Shown one piece after another: positions 10,521 to 18,051 of a DNA stretch of 32,000 bases. Positions within the stretch are counted from its first letter, which is position 1, and each line of letters starts with the position of its first letter. Source of the DNA: an uncultured Bacilli bacterium. GTDB taxonomy: Bacteria > Bacillota_I > Bacilli_A > RF39 > UBA660. A program made the position numbers and the translations under genes. The stretch covers positions 90,842 to 122,841 of the forward strand of contig CAKOJQ010000001.1 of assembly GCA_934090795.1 (NCBI GenBank). The letters are read 5' to 3'. Below the pieces are notes generated by a model that made no database searches, was not told the DNA's origin, and saw only the letters and a list, made by a program, of their open reading frames with translations.

Positions 10521-10814
10521 TCATTTGAAAATCTCACTATGACTACCCGTTGCTACTAACAAAAGGTTAAGTCTATTATCTTCATATTGATAAACTAATA
10601 GCCAATCTGGTTCTATATGACACTCTCTACAATTCATATAATATTTATCGTTTATTAATTTATGGTCTTTATATTTCGGCTCTAATTCTTCCCGTTTTGC
10701 CAATTTATCAATTACATAATCTATTTTATCTAAGTCTTTTCCTTGTTTTGATACCTTTTTATATTGCTTTTTAAAGTTGCTTGATAAAACTAAAATGCAT
10801 TTTTCGCTAGTCAT
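10521..10814 (-). CDS. yafQ: Type II toxin, YafQ/RelE family mRNA interferase
   Basis: KYKDHKLINDKYYMNCRECHIEPDWLLVYQYEDNRLNLLLVATGSHSEIF matches the YafQ pattern (KDH.L......R.CH..PDWLL.Y......L...RTGSHS.LF). It overlaps the antitoxin gene by 8 nt. Confidence 0.85.
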   Translation of the reverse strand: MTSEKCILVLSSNFKKQYKKVSKQGKDLDKIDYVIDKLAKREELEPKYKDHKLINDKYYMNCRECHIEPDWLLVYQYEDNRLNLLLVATGSHSEIFK

Positions 10815-11091
10815 TTATTAGAGCCTTTCTTAACGCTTTAACGTCTTTGTAACTTTCTAGTTCTACTTTACCATTTTTATAATCTTCTATTTCTTGTAAA
10901 GCTTCTAATAATTCTTTACTTGGTCTAGGATTAACCACCTCAAAAGGTACACCATCTTTATTAATTAATTGTTTTATTGCCATATTAACGTATGTACTCA
11001 TATTTAACCCTAAATTACTTAAAATACCAGTTGCTAGTTCTTTGTCTTTTCTATCTACTTGTACGCTTATAGCCGTTGTTAAACTTTCCAT
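10807..11091 (-). CDS. dinJ: Type II antitoxin, RelB/DinJ family
   Basis: ISVQVDRKDKELATGILSNLGLNMSTYVNMAIKQLINKDGVPFEV has a DinJ-like ribbon-helix-helix N-terminus. It lies immediately upstream of the toxin and overlaps it. Confidence 0.8.
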   Translation of the reverse strand: MESLTTAISVQVDRKDKELATGILSNLGLNMSTYVNMAIKQLINKDGVPFEVVNPRPSKELLEALQEIEDYKNGKVELESYKDVKALRKALIND

Positions 11092-11466: not shown

Positions 11467-12555
11467 CTAGTCGCAAGCGACAAATCTAAATTTTTCTAAA
11501 TATTTTATATTATTATAACAATTGCCTAAACTTAAATAAGCCTTAAAACATGTAATAGAACAATTTATATCATTAATGTTAATATTTTTATTAATCATTT
11601 TTCTTAACTTTCTTCTTTGTCTATATATAGTTTTTCTACTTGATATTAAATATATTTTTCCATTATTAAGTAATTTATAGTTCCATTTACAAAACATAAA
11701 TGAATTAGTAATAGAAATTATTTTAGTTTTATTTAAATTAATTTTTATATGTAATTTATCAGCAATAATTTTATAATTATTCAAAACATTTAAAGCCTCA
11801 TCATAAGTTATACAAAATAAGATACTATCATCCATGTAACGAATTATGGGAACATTTTTATTAATAATAAATTTATCTAGTTCATTAGGATACATTAATG
11901 CTTCTCTTTGAGCTATTTCAATACCAAGTCCTAAACCATCACCTATAAATAAATAATCTTCAATAATTTTTATTGTATTTTGATTTTTGATATATTTATT
12001 GTGAATCTCATGAATTACATCATGATTACAACTTTCAAAAAATTTACTATAATCTATTATCACTACATAACCATTTAAACCATATTTATTAAACCATTTT
12101 CTTAATATGGTTTTAACTCTTTTTATACTAAAACTAAATCCTTTATTTATTGTACTTGCACCATTATCATAAATTAATTTACTATCATATAACGGTATTA
12201 ATATCTCATTTGATATAACTTTATGTATTAATCGATCTTTAATATGTGGTGCATCAATGTTTCTTTCTTTTCCTCTTTCATTAATTTTAAACTTATATGT
12301 TTTATTAACAGTATAAGTATTATTTTTTATATTAGTACAAGTACTACCAACAATTGAAAACATATGTAATTTAAAATTTATAGTAGACTTTTTATATCCT
12401 ACATTTCTAGTACATTTTTTAGCATAATTATATACCTTATTAAAGGTAAAACATTTATTAACATCATCATAATTATTACTATTGATAATTAATTTATCTT
12501 CTCTTTTCTCTTTTCTTCTTTGATATCTTAATTCTTTTCTTTCTAAACTATTCAT
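11467..12555 (-). CDS. DGR-type reverse transcriptase
   Basis: 362 aa with RT motifs in order: IDAPHIKDRLIHKVI, VVIIDYSKFFESCNHD, GLGLGIEIAQREALMYPNELD, IIRYMDDSILFC (YMDD catalytic box) and LHIKINLNKTKI. It sits 257 nt downstream of the TR on the same strand. SD AAAGGA lies 5 nt before the ATG. Confidence 0.9.
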   Translation of the reverse strand: MNSLERKELRYQRRKEKREDKLIINSNNYDDVNKCFTFNKVYNYAKKCTRNVGYKKSTINFKLHMFSIVGSTCTNIKNNTYTVNKTYKFKINERGKERNIDAPHIKDRLIHKVISNEILIPLYDSKLIYDNGASTINKGFSFSIKRVKTILRKWFNKYGLNGYVVIIDYSKFFESCNHDVIHEIHNKYIKNQNTIKIIEDYLFIGDGLGLGIEIAQREALMYPNELDKFIINKNVPIIRYMDDSILFCITYDEALNVLNNYKIIADKLHIKINLNKTKIISITNSFMFCKWNYKLLNNGKIYLISSRKTIYRQRRKLRKMINKNININDINCSITCFKAYLSLGNCYNNIKYLEKFRFVACD

Positions 12556-12567
12556 TTAATTCCTTTC

Positions 12568-12593
12568 AAAAAAAATCTGATGTACTACATCAG
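12568..12593 (-). terminator. Terminator-like hairpin plus U8 tract just upstream of the RT start
   Basis: In minus sense CTGATGTAGTACATCAG (arms CTGATGT/ACATCAG) is followed by A then TTTTTTTT, then GAAAGGAATTAA-ATG of the RT. Confidence 0.45.
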
Positions 12594-12743
12594 GTAAATA
12601 TTTACAATAGATGAAAAATAAGTAGTCATATATACATCCATGTAATTTATTAAATATTTAAATATAAACCATGCAAGAAGCGTCCGGATGCTATAACCAT
12701 CAGATAAATTTAGAAGTATGATACTTCAAGGATAAACTAATCC

Positions 12744-12760
12744 TTTCCTATTTCAAAAGT
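12744..12760 (-). repeat. 17-nt direct repeat flanking the TR, RT-proximal copy
   Basis: TTTCCTATTTCAAAAGT on the plus strand, identical to 12983-12999. It lies 52 nt from the TR edge. Confidence 0.7.
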
Positions 12761-12812
12761 AGCACTAAAGAGTTAATTAAAACATCTTCCCATCACTTGT
12801 TCCACTAAAAGA

Positions 12813-12928
12813 GGAAATCTGGCGCGAAACCATTGTTGTTATTAGCATTATTATTGTTGACGTTACCGTTGTTATTCACATTTAAGAAATTATTGTTATT
12901 ATTGGAATTAGCCGCGCGAAGCCACCAC
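12813..12928 (-). repeat. DGR template repeat (TR)
   Basis: In sense (minus) orientation: TGGTGGCTTCGCGCGGCT AAT TCC AAT AAT AAC AAT AAT TTC TTA AAT GTG AAT AAC AAC GGT AAC GTC AAC AAT AAT AAT GCT AAT AAC AAC AAT GGTTTCGCGCCAGATTTCC. It has 19 AAY codons, is non-coding, and aligns without gaps to 14286-14401 (offset 1473). Confidence 0.93.
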
Positions 12929-12982
12929 GAAAATAAAAACATTAATAACTAAAACTAAGGCTTACTCGTAATATACATTAGT

Positions 12983-12999
12983 TTTCCTATTTCAAAAGT
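12983..12999 (-). repeat. 17-nt direct repeat flanking the TR, accessory-gene-proximal copy
   Basis: TTTCCTATTTCAAAAGT on the plus strand, identical to 12744-12760. It lies 54 nt from the TR edge and covers the last codons and the TGA stop of the 12992-13540 ORF. Confidence 0.7.
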
Positions 13000-13540
13000 T
13001 TTCAAAAATTATTTTTTTGACAAACTTAGAAACCAATAAATCAATTATTTGATCATCATCTATATCTTTATCATTTATTTTCTTTAATTTTTTATTATCA
13101 CTTTCTAAAACCCCTTTTAATAATTTATATTGTTTATCATAAAGACTACCCAATATTTCTAATCTCTTATCAAGCATTTCTCTAGCTTCTGTTGTTGTAT
13201 ATGATTTACCATTTTTTCTCCCAAAACAATTTTTAGGATTGGTATATAACACCTCTACCATATCAGTTAATTTTTTATTTAATATATCTAAACAACTTTT
13301 AGATAGTAAAATAAACACTCTTCTAAGTAATATATCTTCATATCTTGTTGGATTAATACTATTAGCCATAGATACTAACTCAGCTTGTTTACACACATAC
13401 TTTTCGATCGGTATTATATAAATATTAGTCCATTTTTTATTTAGTTTAGAAGATAATCTTAATGTTTCAACTTGAATTACATAAGCATTATCCACATATT
13501 CTAAACCATTTGGCTTTCTTTTGAATTTGGGAATTGACAT
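12992..13540 (-). CDS. DGR accessory protein 1 (occupies the Avd position; basic, probably helical; family unverified)
   Basis: 182-aa ORF between the target gene and the TR, Lys-rich. It aligns without gaps over at least 56 aa to the adjacent ORF (NIYxIP...Y..K...YEDI...LS..CL..L..K..DM). Confidence 0.6.
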   Translation of the reverse strand: MSIPKFKRKPNGLEYVDNAYVIQVETLRLSSKLNKKWTNIYIIPIEKYVCKQAELVSMANSINPTRYEDILLRRVFILLSKSCLDILNKKLTDMVEVLYTNPKNCFGRKNGKSYTTTEAREMLDKRLEILGSLYDKQYKLLKGVLESDNKKLKKINDKDIDDDQIIDLLVSKFVKKIIFENF

Positions 13541-13555
13541 AAAACTTACTCTTTT

Positions 13556-14098
13556 CTAAAACAAAATTTTGATTACTTCTTCACTATAAATATTTAATAT
13601 ATTAGTAATATTAATTTTTTTATTTTTATATCTTAATAATATAAGTTCATTAATTCTTATTAATATATTAATATTTTTAAATATTCTTTTATATAAAGAA
13701 TTAACATAATTATATTTATCTATTAATTCTTTATTATATTTTTTAATATAATTTATTTTTTTATATTTTCTTTTACGACTTATACTTTCATAGTTATCAT
13801 ATATTCTATTAAATTGTAAATCGTACATATCTAAAAATTTATAATATAAAACTTTTAGATAACATCTTGATAGTTTTATCAAAAAATTACAAAATATTAT
13901 ATCTTCATAATTTTTTATTTTATAATTAATTAAATATTTAAATATATTATATTCTTTTACTAAATAATTACTTACAGGTATTTGATAAATGTTTGATTTA
14001 TTTATTTTTAATTTAGATACCAAAAATAACATTTCGCATTTTATATTAAAACTATCTTTATAAACATTTTTTATTAATTTATTATATTTATCTTTCAT
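13556..14098 (-). CDS. DGR accessory protein 2 (divergent tandem paralog of accessory protein 1)
   Basis: 180-aa ORF that stays open through extremely AT-rich DNA, where stops should be frequent. It shares the NIYQIP, YEDI, LSRCYL and FLDM blocks with the 12992-13540 product. I see no obvious SD. Confidence 0.5.
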   Translation of the reverse strand: MKDKYNKLIKNVYKDSFNIKCEMLFLVSKLKINKSNIYQIPVSNYLVKEYNIFKYLINYKIKNYEDIIFCNFLIKLSRCYLKVLYYKFLDMYDLQFNRIYDNYESISRKRKYKKINYIKKYNKELIDKYNYVNSLYKRIFKNINILIRINELILLRYKNKKINITNILNIYSEEVIKILF

Positions 14099-14111
14099 AA
14101 TATTTTATGCA

Positions 14112-14143
14112 CCCATCTGATTTCCTTACGTCAATCAGATGGG
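14112..14143 (-). other. Perfect 11-bp stem-loop just upstream of accessory ORF 2
   Basis: CCCATCTGATT-(10 nt)-AATCAGATGGG. On the plus strand it is followed by a T-rich run. In minus sense it ends 13 nt before the ATG at 14098. Confidence 0.5.
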
Positions 14144-14168
14144 ATTTTATTTTTTTAGTTTATTTTAC

Positions 14169-14209
14169 GGGCCACCTTTTTTACTCACTGTCGTTCGCGG
14201 AGGTGGCCC
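14169..14209 (-). other. GC-rich stem-loop downstream of the VR and target-gene stop
   Basis: GGGCCACCT-(23 nt)-AGGTGGCCC, a 9-bp stem with 7 G-C pairs in otherwise AT-rich DNA. It lies 66 nt past the stop codon and 77 nt past the VR edge. Confidence 0.5.
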
Positions 14210-14274
14210 TTAGGAACCGATATTCCTATCTTTATTTTTATCTATATATTATGCTTTACATATAATTTACATTT

Positions 14275-15681
14275 TTATCCGATGCGGAAAGCTGGCGCGA
14301 AACCAATGTTGCTATAAGCAGAACGATGGGTGACGTTACCGGCGTCACTCACACTAAAGAAAGTAGAGCCACTAGTGGAATAAGCCGCGCGAAGCCACCA
14401 CCAACTGCCGGAACTTGATGTTAGTGTTTTCTTTATGGCTGCAGTATAACTATTTGTTGTTACTTCTTGGTCTTTATAATAATCTAATTGTCTTGTATTA
14501 TTATAAGCTGTATCTCTTGCAGATAATGATGTCGTTGATGGTGATGCATCTTCCCATACTTCATGTCCACTTAATAAATATATTTTATCGGTTGATGTGA
14601 AGTTTGTTTCTCCACTGGTACTTCCATGGCCTGATACTACATTTGTTTTTATTATTACATCTTGTAAATCACTTGGTAATTTCTTTAAGAAATCACCATT
14701 GGCATAAGTTCTCATTGCACTTGCTGGCCATCCATCTACATTCCATCCGTAATTATATTGTGTTCCTTTATACTCTCCTGATGGATTCATGTTTCTATTT
14801 TCTACTATATCTACAAACTCAACAACAAATCCACAAGCCGTCTGGGAAAAGTTTAAGTCATTACATTCTTTTGGTGTTGTGTTATTGGCAACGCGCACTG
14901 TATAATTTTTTCCACCTATTTCTACTTCTTTTTCTGACCCTACTGGATATGCTTCAAGTTGTCCATCTTGTACTACTGCTGCTATTGTTTCCCATGAATC
15001 TGCTGCAAATGTTGTTGGTGTTGGTGGTTCATAATTTACAACTATCTTTCCATTTATAGTAGCACCTTTTTCACTATCTTGATTTAATCCTGTATCAGGA
15101 AATTGAATTATTAAATTAAATTCAATACTTTGTTCATTTTGATTTGCTTTAAATTCTCCAGTAACCATTTCTGTATATTTATTTCCTTTTTTTAATGTTC
15201 CATGAGTATATCCTGTATAAGTATCATTTCCTGGTATTGTTTGATTTAAATAATCTTTTTTTGTTTTACCATCTTCTGGTGTTACTACATAGTTTGCCGT
15301 TACATTTTCATTTGTTGTTGTTCTTTTTATATAGTAATGTATTTGTCCATCACTAAATGTTGATTTATATTTTAGTCCTACTTTATACGGCATCACTAAT
15401 CCATCGCCTGCAGCCATTCCTGTTGCTGTGTTTGTTCCTGTTAATGAGAATGTTTTATTAACAAGAATTTTATCACTTGGTTGAATATTTGTTACAGGTA
15501 ATATATTATCTGTTCCATCATTATAAGTTATTAACATCTTTCCTGTATCAATTGTTGCTTGGGCTGTTGATCCTTGATTGTTAAATGCACTAAAGTATGC
15601 AAATGTGATGCCACCAAAAACAAGTAATATACTTACAATTGTAATAATTATAACCATCGTGACTAATTTGTTTTCTTTCAT
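14275..15681 (-). CDS. DGR target: secreted or surface protein with a SipW/TasA-type signal peptide and a C-terminal WWLR...GFxPxF variable ligand-binding domain (DUF6273-like / C-type-lectin-like)
   Basis: I prefer the ATG at 15681 (MKENKLVTMVIIITIVSILLVFGGITFAYFSA...) because GAGGAAGG lies 9 nt upstream. The track start at 15747 is a TTG that reads through the promoter poly-G. The C-terminus is ...KIYLLSGHEVW...SWWWLRAAYSTSGSTFFSVSDAGNVTHRSAYSNIGFAPAFRIG. The VR covers the last 39 or so codons. Confidence 0.85.
   Translation of the reverse strand: MKENKLVTMVIIITIVSILLVFGGITFAYFSAFNNQGSTAQATIDTGKMLITYNDGTDNILPVTNIQPSDKILVNKTFSLTGTNTATGMAAGDGLVMPYKVGLKYKSTFSDGQIHYYIKRTTTNENVTANYVVTPEDGKTKKDYLNQTIPGNDTYTGYTHGTLKKGNKYTEMVTGEFKANQNEQSIEFNLIIQFPDTGLNQDSEKGATINGKIVVNYEPPTPTTFAADSWETIAAVVQDGQLEAYPVGSEKEVEIGGKNYTVRVANNTTPKECNDLNFSQTACGFVVEFVDIVENRNMNPSGEYKGTQYNYGWNVDGWPASAMRTYANGDFLKKLPSDLQDVIIKTNVVSGHGSTSGETNFTSTDKIYLLSGHEVWEDASPSTTSLSARDTAYNNTRQLDYYKDQEVTTNSYTAAIKKTLTSSSGSWWWLRAAYSTSGSTFFSVSDAGNVTHRSAYSNIGFAPAFRIG
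14286..14401 (-). repeat. DGR variable repeat (VR)
   Basis: Gapless 116-nt alignment to the TR gives 92 identities and 24 mismatches. All mismatches are at plus-strand T in the TR, which is A in the sense strand. 24 of 41 TR adenines are substituted and 0 of 75 other positions. Both ends are identical GC-rich anchors (TGGTGGCTTCGCGCGGCT and GGTTTCGCGCCAG). Confidence 0.93.
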
Positions 15682-15709
15682 ATTTTTCATCCTTCCTCTA
15701 CTATAGAAA

Positions 15710-15740
15710 ATTATACTATTAAAACACCCCCCCCAGTCAA
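15710..15740 (-). promoter_or_regulatory. Sigma-A-type promoter of the DGR target gene with a G8 tract in the spacer
   Basis: In minus sense: TTGACT-GGGGGGGGTGTTTTAATAG-TATAAT, a 19-nt spacer. The -35 is at 15735-15740, the G8 tract at 15727-15734, and the -10 at 15710-15715. Confidence 0.65.
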
Positions 15741-16010: not shown

Positions 16011-17173
16011 CTATTTTTCTTTTTTAAAATTAAGTTTTGGAGTAATGTAGTTATCCATAATAAGCATTAATAAAATAGATAATAGAATTGTAATTACATA
16101 TGTTAATATATAAATTGTATGTAATCCTTTTACTGTTGTATTGTTAATATTACAAACTTTTTGAAGAACACCAATTATTGGATAATGTAACATATAAATA
16201 TAAAGTGCTAACTTACCAGGATATTTCCAAATAGGTTTATTTAATAAAGATGTTAAATAATCTTTGTTTAATAAAACTAAGAAAACAATAATTAAACATA
16301 AACCATTAATAGTTGCAAATGTGAATGTTGCACCCCAAATCATATGATAAATAACAATACATGTACATACAGCATTTACAATAGTTAAAAGAATTTTACC
16401 TAATTTACTAAACTCTTTATTACTAATTTTTTCAATAAGTTCATAAAGAACACATCCTAAACCAATTGTAAAGAATGCTTGAATAGCAGCTTCGCTAATA
16501 CCGGTAATGGGAAATTATACCACATTGGACTAATACCGTTAACATGGAAATATCCATATACAATTATAAATCCAACTGGGAATATTAAACCTACTATTAA
16601 ATCTTCACATTTTTCTAATAAATAGTAAATTACATAACTAACTACTAATAAGCTTGAGATAAACCAAAGAGGTCCATTCATTAACATGTGTCTTCCTGCT
16701 GACATTAAACCATAAGTATTATTACCAATACCTAAGCCAGTAACAACACATCCTAGCCATTCCCATAAACAATCAATAGCAATTCTTGGCCATTCATTAA
16801 TTGGAAATCCATTATAAATGTTAGTTAGTACAAAACCAAATAATAGACAAATTAAGAATGCAGGATATAAACCTTTTAATCTTCTTAAAAGATATTTTCC
16901 AGCTCCTTCTCTAGGTGCTAATTCAGATTTACTTTCTTTCCTTTCTAATTTACTCTTTTTAAATTTTATCATTAAGAAATATCCTGTAATTAAATAGAAA
17001 ATAATAATTACATCAAGACTTCCTTTGAACATTACACCACCAGTAGGCACTCCATTTTTTGTAATTAACCATGGACTAGTATGTCAATACATCATTGGAT
17101 AAATGATATAAACATGAACTAGAATGAAGATCATACAAGAAACAAAACGCCAAAATTCAACAGCATAATTCAT
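16011..17173 (-). pseudogene. Acyltransferase family 3 (O-acyltransferase) gene disrupted by one in-frame TGA and one frameshift
   Basis: From the ATG at 17173 the frame reads MNYAVEFWRFVSCMIFILVHVYIIYPMMY-TGA-HTSPWLITKNGVPTGGVMFKG... The frame is lost near 16505-16515 and continues in another frame as ITGISEAAIQAFFTIGLGCVLYELIEK...YHMIWGATFTF... to the stop at 16011. The product is hydrophobic and multi-pass throughout. Confidence 0.7.
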
Positions 17174-17190
17174 TTGTTTTATGTTTTAGG

Positions 17191-17916
17191 TTAGTTCAAT
17201 GTTTTGGTTTTACCTTTTTTATACTCTAAATATTCTGATAATTTCATTTCTTGATATTTAAAATTATATGGATTATAAAATAGTATTAAATCTTGTCTTT
17301 CAATATATAATTTTTTTACGGTTTCTAAACTTAGAGTATTATAAATATTTCTAGTAAAACGATATATAGGAACTATACTTAAAAAGTAATTTAATATTTT
17401 TTCTCTATCATCAATTATTTCACCAGTACTTTTATTTACAAGTACTAATATATTTATTTTTTCTGGTGGTATTATATCGTATGTGTAGCAATCTTCGGGA
17501 TATAAATCAATAACGTTAGGAATATCTTTAAACATTAAGTATACTCCATCTCCTAAATATTCATTAAAACTTTCATATTGCATAGTGTTTTTAGTCGCTT
17601 CTAGCGTTTCAATCATTGATTCTATTTCTTTTAACTTTTTTATATTGGGTTTGGCTTCATTTATATTTTTGCGACATGCTTTTATTTCCTTTTCATAATA
17701 CTCTATAAGTTCTTTTCCAGATTCTCCAGTATGAGTATTATAATAATATAAAAGATTTGTATATAATAATATGGCGTTATTAATTCCAGATGAAAAGAAT
17801 ATAGCACACTTTTTATCACCTATACTTTGACATCTAGTCCCATTTTGAGGAACTAATCCATTTTTACTTATGTTATCTAAATTACTGTAATTGGTAAAAT
17901 GATAATATTTATTCAT
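17191..17916 (-). CDS. Hypothetical protein (N-terminus faintly resembles Tpt1/DarT-type ADP-ribosyltransferase-fold proteins)
   Basis: I prefer the ATG at 17916 with SD GAGGTG. The N-terminus is MNKYYHFTNYSNLDNISKNGLVPQNGTRCQSIGDKKCAIFFSSG. Function is not established. Confidence 0.55.
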   Translation of the reverse strand: MNKYYHFTNYSNLDNISKNGLVPQNGTRCQSIGDKKCAIFFSSGINNAILLYTNLLYYYNTHTGESGKELIEYYEKEIKACRKNINEAKPNIKKLKEIESMIETLEATKNTMQYESFNEYLGDGVYLMFKDIPNVIDLYPEDCYTYDIIPPEKINILVLVNKSTGEIIDDREKILNYFLSIVPIYRFTRNIYNTLSLETVKKLYIERQDLILFYNPYNFKYQEMKLSEYLEYKKGKTKTLN

Positions 17917-18051
17917 AATACACCTCAAATATATAAATTTGTTCGATTATTATACCATAAAATCAATTTAATTTCAATTAGCCAAAATAGGATATTATTT
18001 TTAGGTATATAATTATTAAAAATTATTAAGATATTATTAGGAGAAAAAATT

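Follow-up and report, generated by a model that had tools for sequence, protein, structure and literature searches.

The DNA analysed here, a 32,000-nt stretch from an uncultured Bacilli bacterium (positions 90,842 to 122,841 of contig CAKOJQ010000001.1, GenBank assembly GCA_934090795.1) which is referred to as the window, carries a compact cassette of genes and RNA elements on its minus strand (Table 1). In 5′ to 3′ direction, the cassette consists of a target gene containing a variable repeat (VR), two hairpins, the accessory genes acc1 and acc2, a template repeat (TR), an RT-2 RNA and the gene of a reverse transcriptase (RT). We interpret this arrangement, with a probability of roughly 93%, as a chromosomal diversity-generating retroelement (DGR) of the common avd-TR-RT layout, designated architecture B1 by Wu et al. 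(PMC5758913). A preliminary description of the same DNA had proposed the signature of adenine-specific mutagenic retrohoming, and this proposal is sustained by the adenine-only repeat pair, the context of the RT, the RT-2 RNA in the spacer, the DUF6273 domain of the target and the housekeeping surroundings. Homologous loci and proteins of related strains are denoted by L and P numbers, respectively.

Table 1. Features of the cassette; positions are counted from the first letter of the window.
Feature	Position	Strand	Description
Target gene	14275–15681	minus	468 aa; secreted or surface protein
VR	14286–14401	minus	codes for residues 427–465 of the 468-aa target, at its extreme C-terminus and inside DUF6273
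Candidate initiation of mutagenic homing (IMH) site, 3′ boundary of the VR	14286–14304	minus	sense sequence GGTTTCGCGCCAG(C)TTTCC; role assigned by analogy with BPP-1
Hairpin 1	14169–14209	minus	past the VR and the stop codon; 9-bp GC-rich stem GGGCCACCT/AGGTGGCCC, 23-nt loop
Hairpin 2	14112–14143	minus	directly upstream of the acc1 start codon; 11-bp stem CCCATCTGATT/AATCAGATGGG
acc1	13556–14098	minus	180 aa, basic, pI 9.74; VR-proximal, divergent paralogue of acc2
acc2	12992–13540	minus	182 aa, basic, pI 9.39; TR-proximal, Avd-like predicted four-helix bundle
17-nt perfect direct repeat	12744–12760 and 12983–12999	minus	sense sequence ACTTTTGAAATAGGAAA; the two copies bracket the TR
TR	12813–12928	minus	non-coding, intergenic (acc2 stop to RT start); 41 adenines, 19 AAY codons in the VR frame
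RT-2 RNA (Rfam RF03077)	12555–12755	minus	TR-RT spacer; 52 bits versus a gathering score of 40, E 2e-9
Terminator-like hairpin	12568–12593	minus	CTGATGT-AGT-ACATCAG followed by T8; located 13 nt ahead of the RT start codon, within the 3′ end of RT-2
RT	11467–12555	minus	362 aa; YMDD box; motif 4 LGIEIAQ

An ungapped comparison of the TR and the VR over 116 nt (offset 1473) revealed 24 mismatches, all of which correspond to a plus-strand T in the TR, i.e. to an A in the sense (minus) strand. Changed are 24 of the 41 sense adenines versus none of the 75 other bases of the TR; the realignment returned the same counts as the preliminary description and no non-adenine mismatch within the 116 nt. 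The probability that all 24 mismatches fall onto the 41 adenines by chance is 3.4e-14 (hypergeometric). From TR to VR, adenine is replaced nine times by C, nine times by G and six times by T. A repeat search extends the pair to 119 nt (12813–12931 and 14286–14404) and adds one non-adenine mismatch at 12929, which is located at the 5′ edge of the repeat in sense direction; the 5′ boundary of DGR repeats is usually variable. Because the VR is GC-rich (52%) in a window with a GC content of 25.5%, the differences between TR and VR run counter to a compositional drift towards AT.

Read in the frame of the target gene, the TR translates into SWWLRAANSNNNNNFLNVNNNGNVNNNNANNNNGFAPDF and the VR into WWWLRAAYSTSGSTFFSVSDAGNVTHRSAYSNIGFAPAF. 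The 19 AAY codons previously attributed to the TR were recovered in this frame and, together with one TTA and one GAT codon, add up to 21 variable codons; no stop codon can be reached by mutagenesis of the TR adenines. The theoretical repertoire derived from these 21 codons amounts to ~10^23.2 peptides, while the earlier estimate of 15^19 (~10^22) holds for the AAY codons alone. The TR is identical among L001, L002 and L087, and its AAY codons are kept across all lineages examined. The candidate IMH has its counterpart in the TR at 12813–12831, with an A replacing the C, and beyond the shared GC-rich 3′ end GGTTTCGCGCCAG the TR and VR sequences are wholly unlike. A second VR was found in the window neither by a scan of its whole length for adenine-only repeats nor by a search with the shared anchor. 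As to the 17-nt direct repeat, the copy at 12983–12999 overlaps the acc2 stop codon and that at 12744–12760 the 5′ end of the RT-2 match; it is fully conserved in L004, over 11 nt in L016 and not at all in more distant relatives.

Copying from TR to VR has left traces among the related strains. Positions other than adenines at which the TR of a relative deviates from that of the window are mirrored in the cognate VR in 16 of 16 cases for L217, 15 of 15 for L004 and 19 of 19 for L302, which indicates a TR-to-VR transfer on an evolutionary timescale. L302 and L304, which are 97.6% identical over 3.9 kb, show 11 differences over the 1291 target-gene positions outside the VR versus 27 over the 116 inside; 20 of these 27 differences are found at TR adenines, and five of the other seven coincide with differences between the two TRs. 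Close relatives contain at least three TR types distinguished by mid-repeat differences (GGTAACGTCAAC, GGCAACTGGAAC and AATAGTTTTTGGAAT, as seen in L303 and in L302/L304 versus the window and L004/L217). L303 carries a TR of one type paired with a VR apparently derived from another, which suggests that the TR-RT module is exchanged between strains by recombination. In a metagenome scan, an exact pattern over the VR 3′ end and the stop codon gave no match, and a 17-mer common to TR and VR recovered 120 unrelated GC-rich loci, none of them with this repeat; searches for proteins identical to the RT and the target yielded nothing beyond short contigs or the same VR. By analogy with the BPP-1 system, the element would be expected to be still active in the window strain.

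The YMDD-box RT lies downstream of the TR on the same strand, as had been noted before, and its domain matches RVT_1 of Pfam (E 3.5e-10) and the reverse transcriptase family phrog_1423 (E 8e-53). Altogether, 160 RT homologues were found. A set of 82 loci, composed of 80 loci with RT homologues from species-representative genomes and two further ones, was scanned for repeats with mismatches strictly at the adenines of one copy, and 52 of the 82 contain such a TR/VR pair. In all 52 the A-rich copy immediately precedes the RT. In 51, the diversified copy follows another 0.5–1.5 kb upstream, where it forms the end of an open reading frame (ORF). Because 52 of the 82 loci carry this adenine-only pair beside the RT, the window enzyme is assigned to a DGR clade; none of the homologues was found in the context of a group II intron or retron, an affiliation that the preliminary description had regarded as incompatible with a DGR. 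All residues invariant across the aligned family are retained in the window RT. Its relatives in cellular metagenome-assembled genomes (MAGs) reach 55–84% identity versus 37% for the best one in IMG/VR. The best NCBIfam match is a group II intron RT/maturase model, with a score of 72.8 bits far under the cut-off of 300 bits, and an Rfam scan of the window at gathering threshold, which detected one tRNA and RT-2 only, did not reveal a group II intron or retron RNA. On the basis of this score, the lack of such an RNA and the DGR context of the homologues, an identity as group II intron, retron or defence RT was rejected. As a side observation, P0005, the representative of an RT cluster with 441 members, does not contain the DD of the YMDD box.

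Of 14 related DGR loci tested, 12 likewise have RT-2 in the spacer between TR and RT, and RT-2 is, judged from these comparisons, the TR-RT spacer of the whole DGR clade. According to a covariance-model alignment, the window copy is devoid of the first hairpin of the model. The thermodynamic stability of the spacer alone is unremarkable (z = −0.85), and its structure is supported by the Rfam covariance model, not by folding energy. The 3′ arm of the terminator-like hairpin doubles as the 3′ strand of a long-range closing helix of RT-2 (~12577–12585 with ~12708–12716). This strand, ACAUCAGAU, can pair either with AUCUGAUG 130 nt upstream or with the local CUGAUGU, the latter generating the terminator-like hairpin with its U8 tail; the local hairpin is present in the minimum free energy fold and the long-range helix in the centroid fold. 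The modelled alternative structures may couple folding of the RNA to expression of the RT. The motif AUCUGAU/AUCAGAU also makes up hairpin 2 upstream of acc1. A duplex flanking the TR, like the "cPRT stop" of BPP-1, was not apparent in 14 loci, where RNAduplex energies were no better than those of shuffled sequences. In the work of Weinberg et al. 2017 (PMC5737381), RT-10 was the sole RT motif tied to a DGR, and the other RT motifs were speculated to serve other DGRs.

Between VR and TR, related DGRs contain one accessory gene of 134–195 aa, to which acc2 is similar with E-values of ~1e-55 to 1e-63 (phmmer); acc2 is the orthologue of this single gene. acc1 is 29% identical to acc2 (E 1e-10) and, according to the alignment, is devoid of the N-terminal MS(V/I)PKFKR motif conserved in the family. 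Among the loci whose accessory genes were examined, the second paralogue is present only in the closest relatives of the window (L004, L087, L217–L220 and L302–L304). The dN/dS ratios of ~0.15 for acc2 and 0.30–0.46 for acc1 point to purifying selection on both genes. AF2 models of acc2 (pLDDT 82.6) and acc1 (pLDDT 83.5) consist of four long helices and a C-terminal helix. The best fold matches of acc2 in the PDB (Foldseek) are 2gsc and 2rld, both of which belong to the family that includes Avd; the PDB entry 2rld carries the label "S23 ribosomal protein family". Avd itself is a basic four-helix bundle that assembles into a pentamer and binds the RT. Among the fold matches of acc2 in BFVD are several phage proteins with the names "Avd-like" or "bAvd-like", and its sequence matches phrog_30516, a family of unknown function (E 3e-21). 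By predicted fold and charge alone, acc1 and acc2 are thus classified as Avd-like. The single avd implied by the likeness to mtd/avd/TR/brt in the preliminary description could not be upheld, as two accessory genes are present and neither is a Pfam Avd match.

The published DGR catalogue gives a pI of 9.5 ± 0.7 for Avd, describes avd genes as "very poorly conserved" and lists a second avd gene for only 1 of 372 elements (PMC5758913). The lack of a Pfam match is in line with this poor conservation, and the tandem accessory pair is rare but precedented. A more far-reaching idea, which we put forward tentatively and consider rather improbable, is that acc1 and acc2 share a division of labour absent in single-Avd DGRs, either in a hetero-oligomeric barrel or with acc1 as a regulatory or target-site-specific subunit, and that the helix/terminator alternative of RT-2 would provide a built-in switch linking folding of the DGR RNA to RT expression. 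In L305–L310, acc2-like genes (176–182 aa, 89–92% identical) are located elsewhere in the chromosome without an adjoining RT, e.g. beside an LPG_synthase gene or yqfD, and may be remnants of further DGR copies.

The target protein (pI 5.2) starts with a hydrophobic signal/anchor segment of weak camelysin-type similarity (Peptidase_M73, residues 5–83, E 8e-5, Pfam) and ends with a DUF6273 domain (residues 308–467, E 4.9e-19, Pfam). The earlier placement of the VR at the extreme C-terminus of a secreted protein agrees with this organization. An identical target protein was found in a public collection. DUF6273 domains of published DGR targets were modelled as C-type-lectin-like (PMC10743442, PMC11792537) and, in analogy, the same fold is presumed for that of the window. 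Outside the VR (14275–15606), the target DNA is only ~75% identical to that of L083–L086, whose RelB-to-RimP flanks are 94–97% identical; the whole surface protein, beyond the VR alone, evolves fast or is exchanged. In the Hadza-derived locus L218 (1–2837), two tandem DUF6273 genes (>706 aa and 430 aa) precede the accessory genes, and the detected VR sits in the proximal one only.

The 176-nt intergenic stretch between the target gene and acc1 folds with a z-score of −6.7 relative to shuffled sequences (14100–14290) and harbours both hairpins. The stem of hairpin 1 is retained in L083 via compensatory changes from ACC/GGT to GTC/GAC, and at the position of hairpin 2 the same locus contains a hairpin with an unrelated sequence.

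Intact and decayed alleles of the cassette occupy a shared chromosomal site between clpP and rimP-nusA. In L003 and L208–L216, both accessory genes have been deleted (from 14073 to 13080 in window numbering) and the RelB/YafQ pair is also absent, while RT and TR remain. The VR of this lineage is identical in all seven contigs that include it and, in the L003 type, no longer tracks the TR: 34 mismatches were counted, 14 at adenines and 20 at other bases. In L004 and L218–L220, the RT is broken by an in-frame stop codon at the invariant residue G139 and thereby split into ORFs of 138 and 199 aa; the VR is identical in the five loci of the RT-nonsense lineage that include it, L221 among them. Finally, many strains, L083–L086 among them, carry a 2.1-kb deletion between A-rich microhomologies (13732 and 11618 in the window), through which acc2, TR, RT-2 and the greater part of the RT have been lost. 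The first ~108 residues of acc1 are thereby joined to the C-terminal ~50 residues of the RT in a chimeric ORF of 113–168 aa, represented by the proteins P0189, P0193, P0194, P0199, P0201 and P0204–P0206. The target gene of these loci is intact (split in L084), and the VR is identical in four samples. This pattern of decay matches what a requirement for both the RT and the accessory protein would predict. The allelic series at one site (intact, accessory-deleted, RT-nonsense and acc2-TR-RT-deleted) may be viewed as a genetic experiment performed in the field on this requirement, the VR being adenine-diversified only where all parts of the cassette are intact.

Based on the BPP-1 system (Handa et al., bioRxiv 10.1101/2023.10.23.563531; Wu et al., PMC5758913), we propose the following scenario for the cassette. 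The RT and the basic Avd-like protein or proteins would bind a transcript that runs from the 3′ end of acc2 through the TR into the RT-2 spacer. cDNA synthesis would be primed inside the spacer RNA, whose counterpart in BPP-1 is the Sp region that supports priming, and the TR would be copied faithfully save opposite adenines, where any nucleotide might be inserted. The cDNA would then take the place of the VR in the 3′-terminal part of the target gene, with the GC-rich boundary GGTTTCGCGCCAG as the 3′ limit. As a result, up to 21 codons, 19 of them AAY, would be re-randomised on the ligand-binding face of the presumed C-type-lectin-like DUF6273 domain. The adenine-only pair, the parts and their order, the clade of the RT as defined by its context in relatives and the lineage-specific TR-to-VR copying are direct observations, whereas cis-priming in the spacer RNA, an RT/Avd complex and the functions ascribed to boundary and hairpins are transferred from BPP-1.

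Several observations weigh against the assignment to an active DGR of this type. L087, the sole other assembly that yields target DNA, has a VR identical to that of the window, and repeated sampling of a single clone could in part account for the identity of the VRs in the decayed alleles. Motif 4 of DGR-type RTs reads [I/L/V]GxxxSQ. The window and its close clade have LG(I/V)EIAQ, in which the Q is invariant and A replaces S; the distant members of the alignment have LGVE(T/P)SQ, so that AQ of this clade stands opposite to SQ of the distant members. A profile of the RT family scores the group II intron RT 7uim (1e-20) about equally to 8ub7 (7e-20), whose 328-residue chain we take to be the BPP-1 RT; scores alone do not separate the window RT from group II intron RTs. 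The fold matches of acc2 are weak, with E 0.018 in the PDB and TM-scores of 0.66–0.77 to smaller targets. A Pfam Avd (PF05635) match was not obtained among acc1, acc2, nine locus-derived accessory genes and 51 family members, the latter drawn from an exhaustive profile search with 221 matches that did not reach PF05635, and phmmer and profile searches gave no PDB sequence match for the accessory family. The hairpins are also unlike the short-loop cruciform of BPP-1, as the distance from the stop codon to the first stem is 66 nt and the loop sizes are 10 and 23 nt.

The alternative that survives best, although we consider it unlikely, is a DGR whose sequence is complete but which has fallen silent, i.e. 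an element active until recently, with a fixed VR and heading for the decay seen in its sister strains. Such a state would fit the three independent inactivations in these strains (accessory deletion, RT nonsense and 2.1-kb acc1-RT fusion deletion), the lost DD of P0005, the one VR common to the window and L087, and the terminator-like hairpin with T8 immediately upstream of the RT start; it has to be reconciled, however, with the intactness of all ORFs, the presence of every family-invariant residue in the window RT, the purifying selection on acc1 and acc2, and the absence of non-adenine mismatches over 116 nt versus 20 in the decayed L003.

The genomic setting bears on whether the DGR belongs to the cell or to a phage. 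On one side, the cassette is flanked by RelB/YafQ, RimP, NusA, YlxR, IF2 and RbfA, and on the other side by a split acyltransferase, ClpP, an LCP-family protein, TrmK, RpoD and DnaG. The phage-gene-free chromosomal setting assumed in the preliminary description was thereby confirmed; the surroundings encode housekeeping functions (RpoD, DnaG, ClpP, NusA, IF2), and phage genes are absent from them. PHROG matches are limited to the RT, acc2 and the DUF6273 domain, apart from weak ones to O-acetyltransferase and tail-protein families. One might suspect that the DGR is carried by a phage or prophage and diversifies a receptor-binding protein, since gut phages commonly have DUF6273 targets (PMC10743442, PMC11792537), the DUF6273 region matches a Hoc-like PHROG (E 1.5e-9), acc2 matches phrog_30516 and distant RT relatives (27–37% identity) are frequent in IMG/VR contigs. 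However, the flanks with ClpP, the LCP-family protein, RimP-NusA-IF2, RpoD and DnaG are kept in synteny in many strains, no structural or lysis PHROG match was obtained among the three neighbouring genes tested (16011–17928), the close RT clade (≥55% identity) is absent from IMG/VR, and the signal/anchor of the target is as expected of a cell-surface or secreted protein. We regard such an origin as very improbable, and a prophage was rejected on gene context.

The least tenable alternative, an ordinary duplication or gene conversion with an adenine bias caused by compositional drift and the RT of an unrelated retroelement (group II intron, retron or defence RT), may appeal to the NCBIfam match described above and to PDB sequence matches that include group II and retron-type RTs, but is effectively refuted and of negligible probability in view of the adenine-only pair with its chance probability given above, the change from an A-rich TR to a GC-rich VR against the AT drift, the same signature in the RT locus scan, the lack of group II or retron RNA in the window, the position of RT-2, which accompanies DGR TRs in relatives, and the TR-to-VR mirroring.

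Some neighbours of the chromosomal DGR deserve mention. The RelB antitoxin and the YafQ (ParE-type) toxin are encoded at 10521–11091 on the minus strand, directly downstream of the RT and before rimP; the pair is present in intact and RT-deleted alleles and absent in the accessory-deleted lineage. Between target and clpP, an Acyl_transf_3 O-acyltransferase gene is split into two ORFs (16011–16343 and 16457–17050, minus strand) and is probably a pseudogene; beside it lies an ORF of 245 aa without family match (17191–17928). Because clpP adjoins the target directly in L083, L302 and L304, the region of the acyltransferase and the 245-aa ORF is considered a strain-specific insertion. The relatives are uncultured gut MAGs with the public labels Bacilli, Bacillales, Firmicutes CAG:582 and Tenericutes/Mycoplasmatota.

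The cassette shares with BPP-1 (mtd-avd-TR-brt) the order of its parts (target gene with the VR in its 3′ part, gene of a small, basic and helical accessory protein, non-coding TR, structured spacer RNA, RT), as well as adenine-only mismatches, an AAY-rich TR, a GC-rich 3′ repeat boundary and variable residues on a C-type-lectin-type domain at the C-terminus. Despite this common plan, the window element is chromosomal whereas BPP-1 is phage-borne; one Avd of 128 aa in BPP-1 contrasts with two tandem paralogues of ~180 aa without detectable Avd sequence similarity; the spacer motif is Rfam RT-2 instead of RT-10 (PMC5737381); motif 4 of the RT reads AQ; and the hairpins are large-looped and further away from the VR. 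Closer counterparts are the cellular DGRs of architecture B1 with CLec-type targets (PMC5758913), which likewise have an avd-TR-RT core, an upstream target and a basic accessory protein (pI 9.4 and 9.7 in the window versus an average of 9.5). In contrast to the same catalogue, where only 1 of 372 DGRs has a second avd gene, the pair of the window is kept in several related strains, and both members are under purifying selection. The target domain family and the gut habitat are shared with the DUF6273 DGRs of gut phages, namely of Faecalibacterium prophages (PMC11792537) and of the "tentaclin" phages nd4 and nd12 (PMC10743442), and in the Faecalibacterium prophages the VR is also located at the C-terminus of DUF6273 (PMC11792537). 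The targets of those phages are tail or decoration proteins, whereas that of the window is a signal-bearing cellular protein among core housekeeping genes. With respect to the RF03077 family (PMC5737381), the spacer scores above the gathering threshold and contains the conserved core; beyond the findings of Weinberg et al., RT-2 is located directly 3′ of an adenine-only TR here and in 12 of 14 relatives.

The system is a further example of a well-known kind of DGR and adds little conceptually; its second accessory gene is what chiefly sets it apart. To our knowledge, DGRs are the sole natural system of targeted protein hypermutation in prokaryotes. Very large numbers of them have already been catalogued, and the gut has the highest known DGR density. 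Of moderate specialist interest are the conserved tandem Avd-like paralogues, the assignment of RT-2 to DGR spacers and the natural decay series at one locus. The orphan Rfam family RT-2 becomes tied to the TR-RT spacer of a DGR clade, and an Avd-like family outside Pfam recognition is documented which, because Pfam does not recognise it, is likely to be missed by annotation pipelines. For the organism itself, the cassette represents a cellular, non-phage DGR in a reduced-genome, uncultured lineage of gut Bacilli, labelled "Tenericutes" in part and almost uncharacterised, and its secreted, presumably lectin-like target points to variable adhesion or ligand binding.

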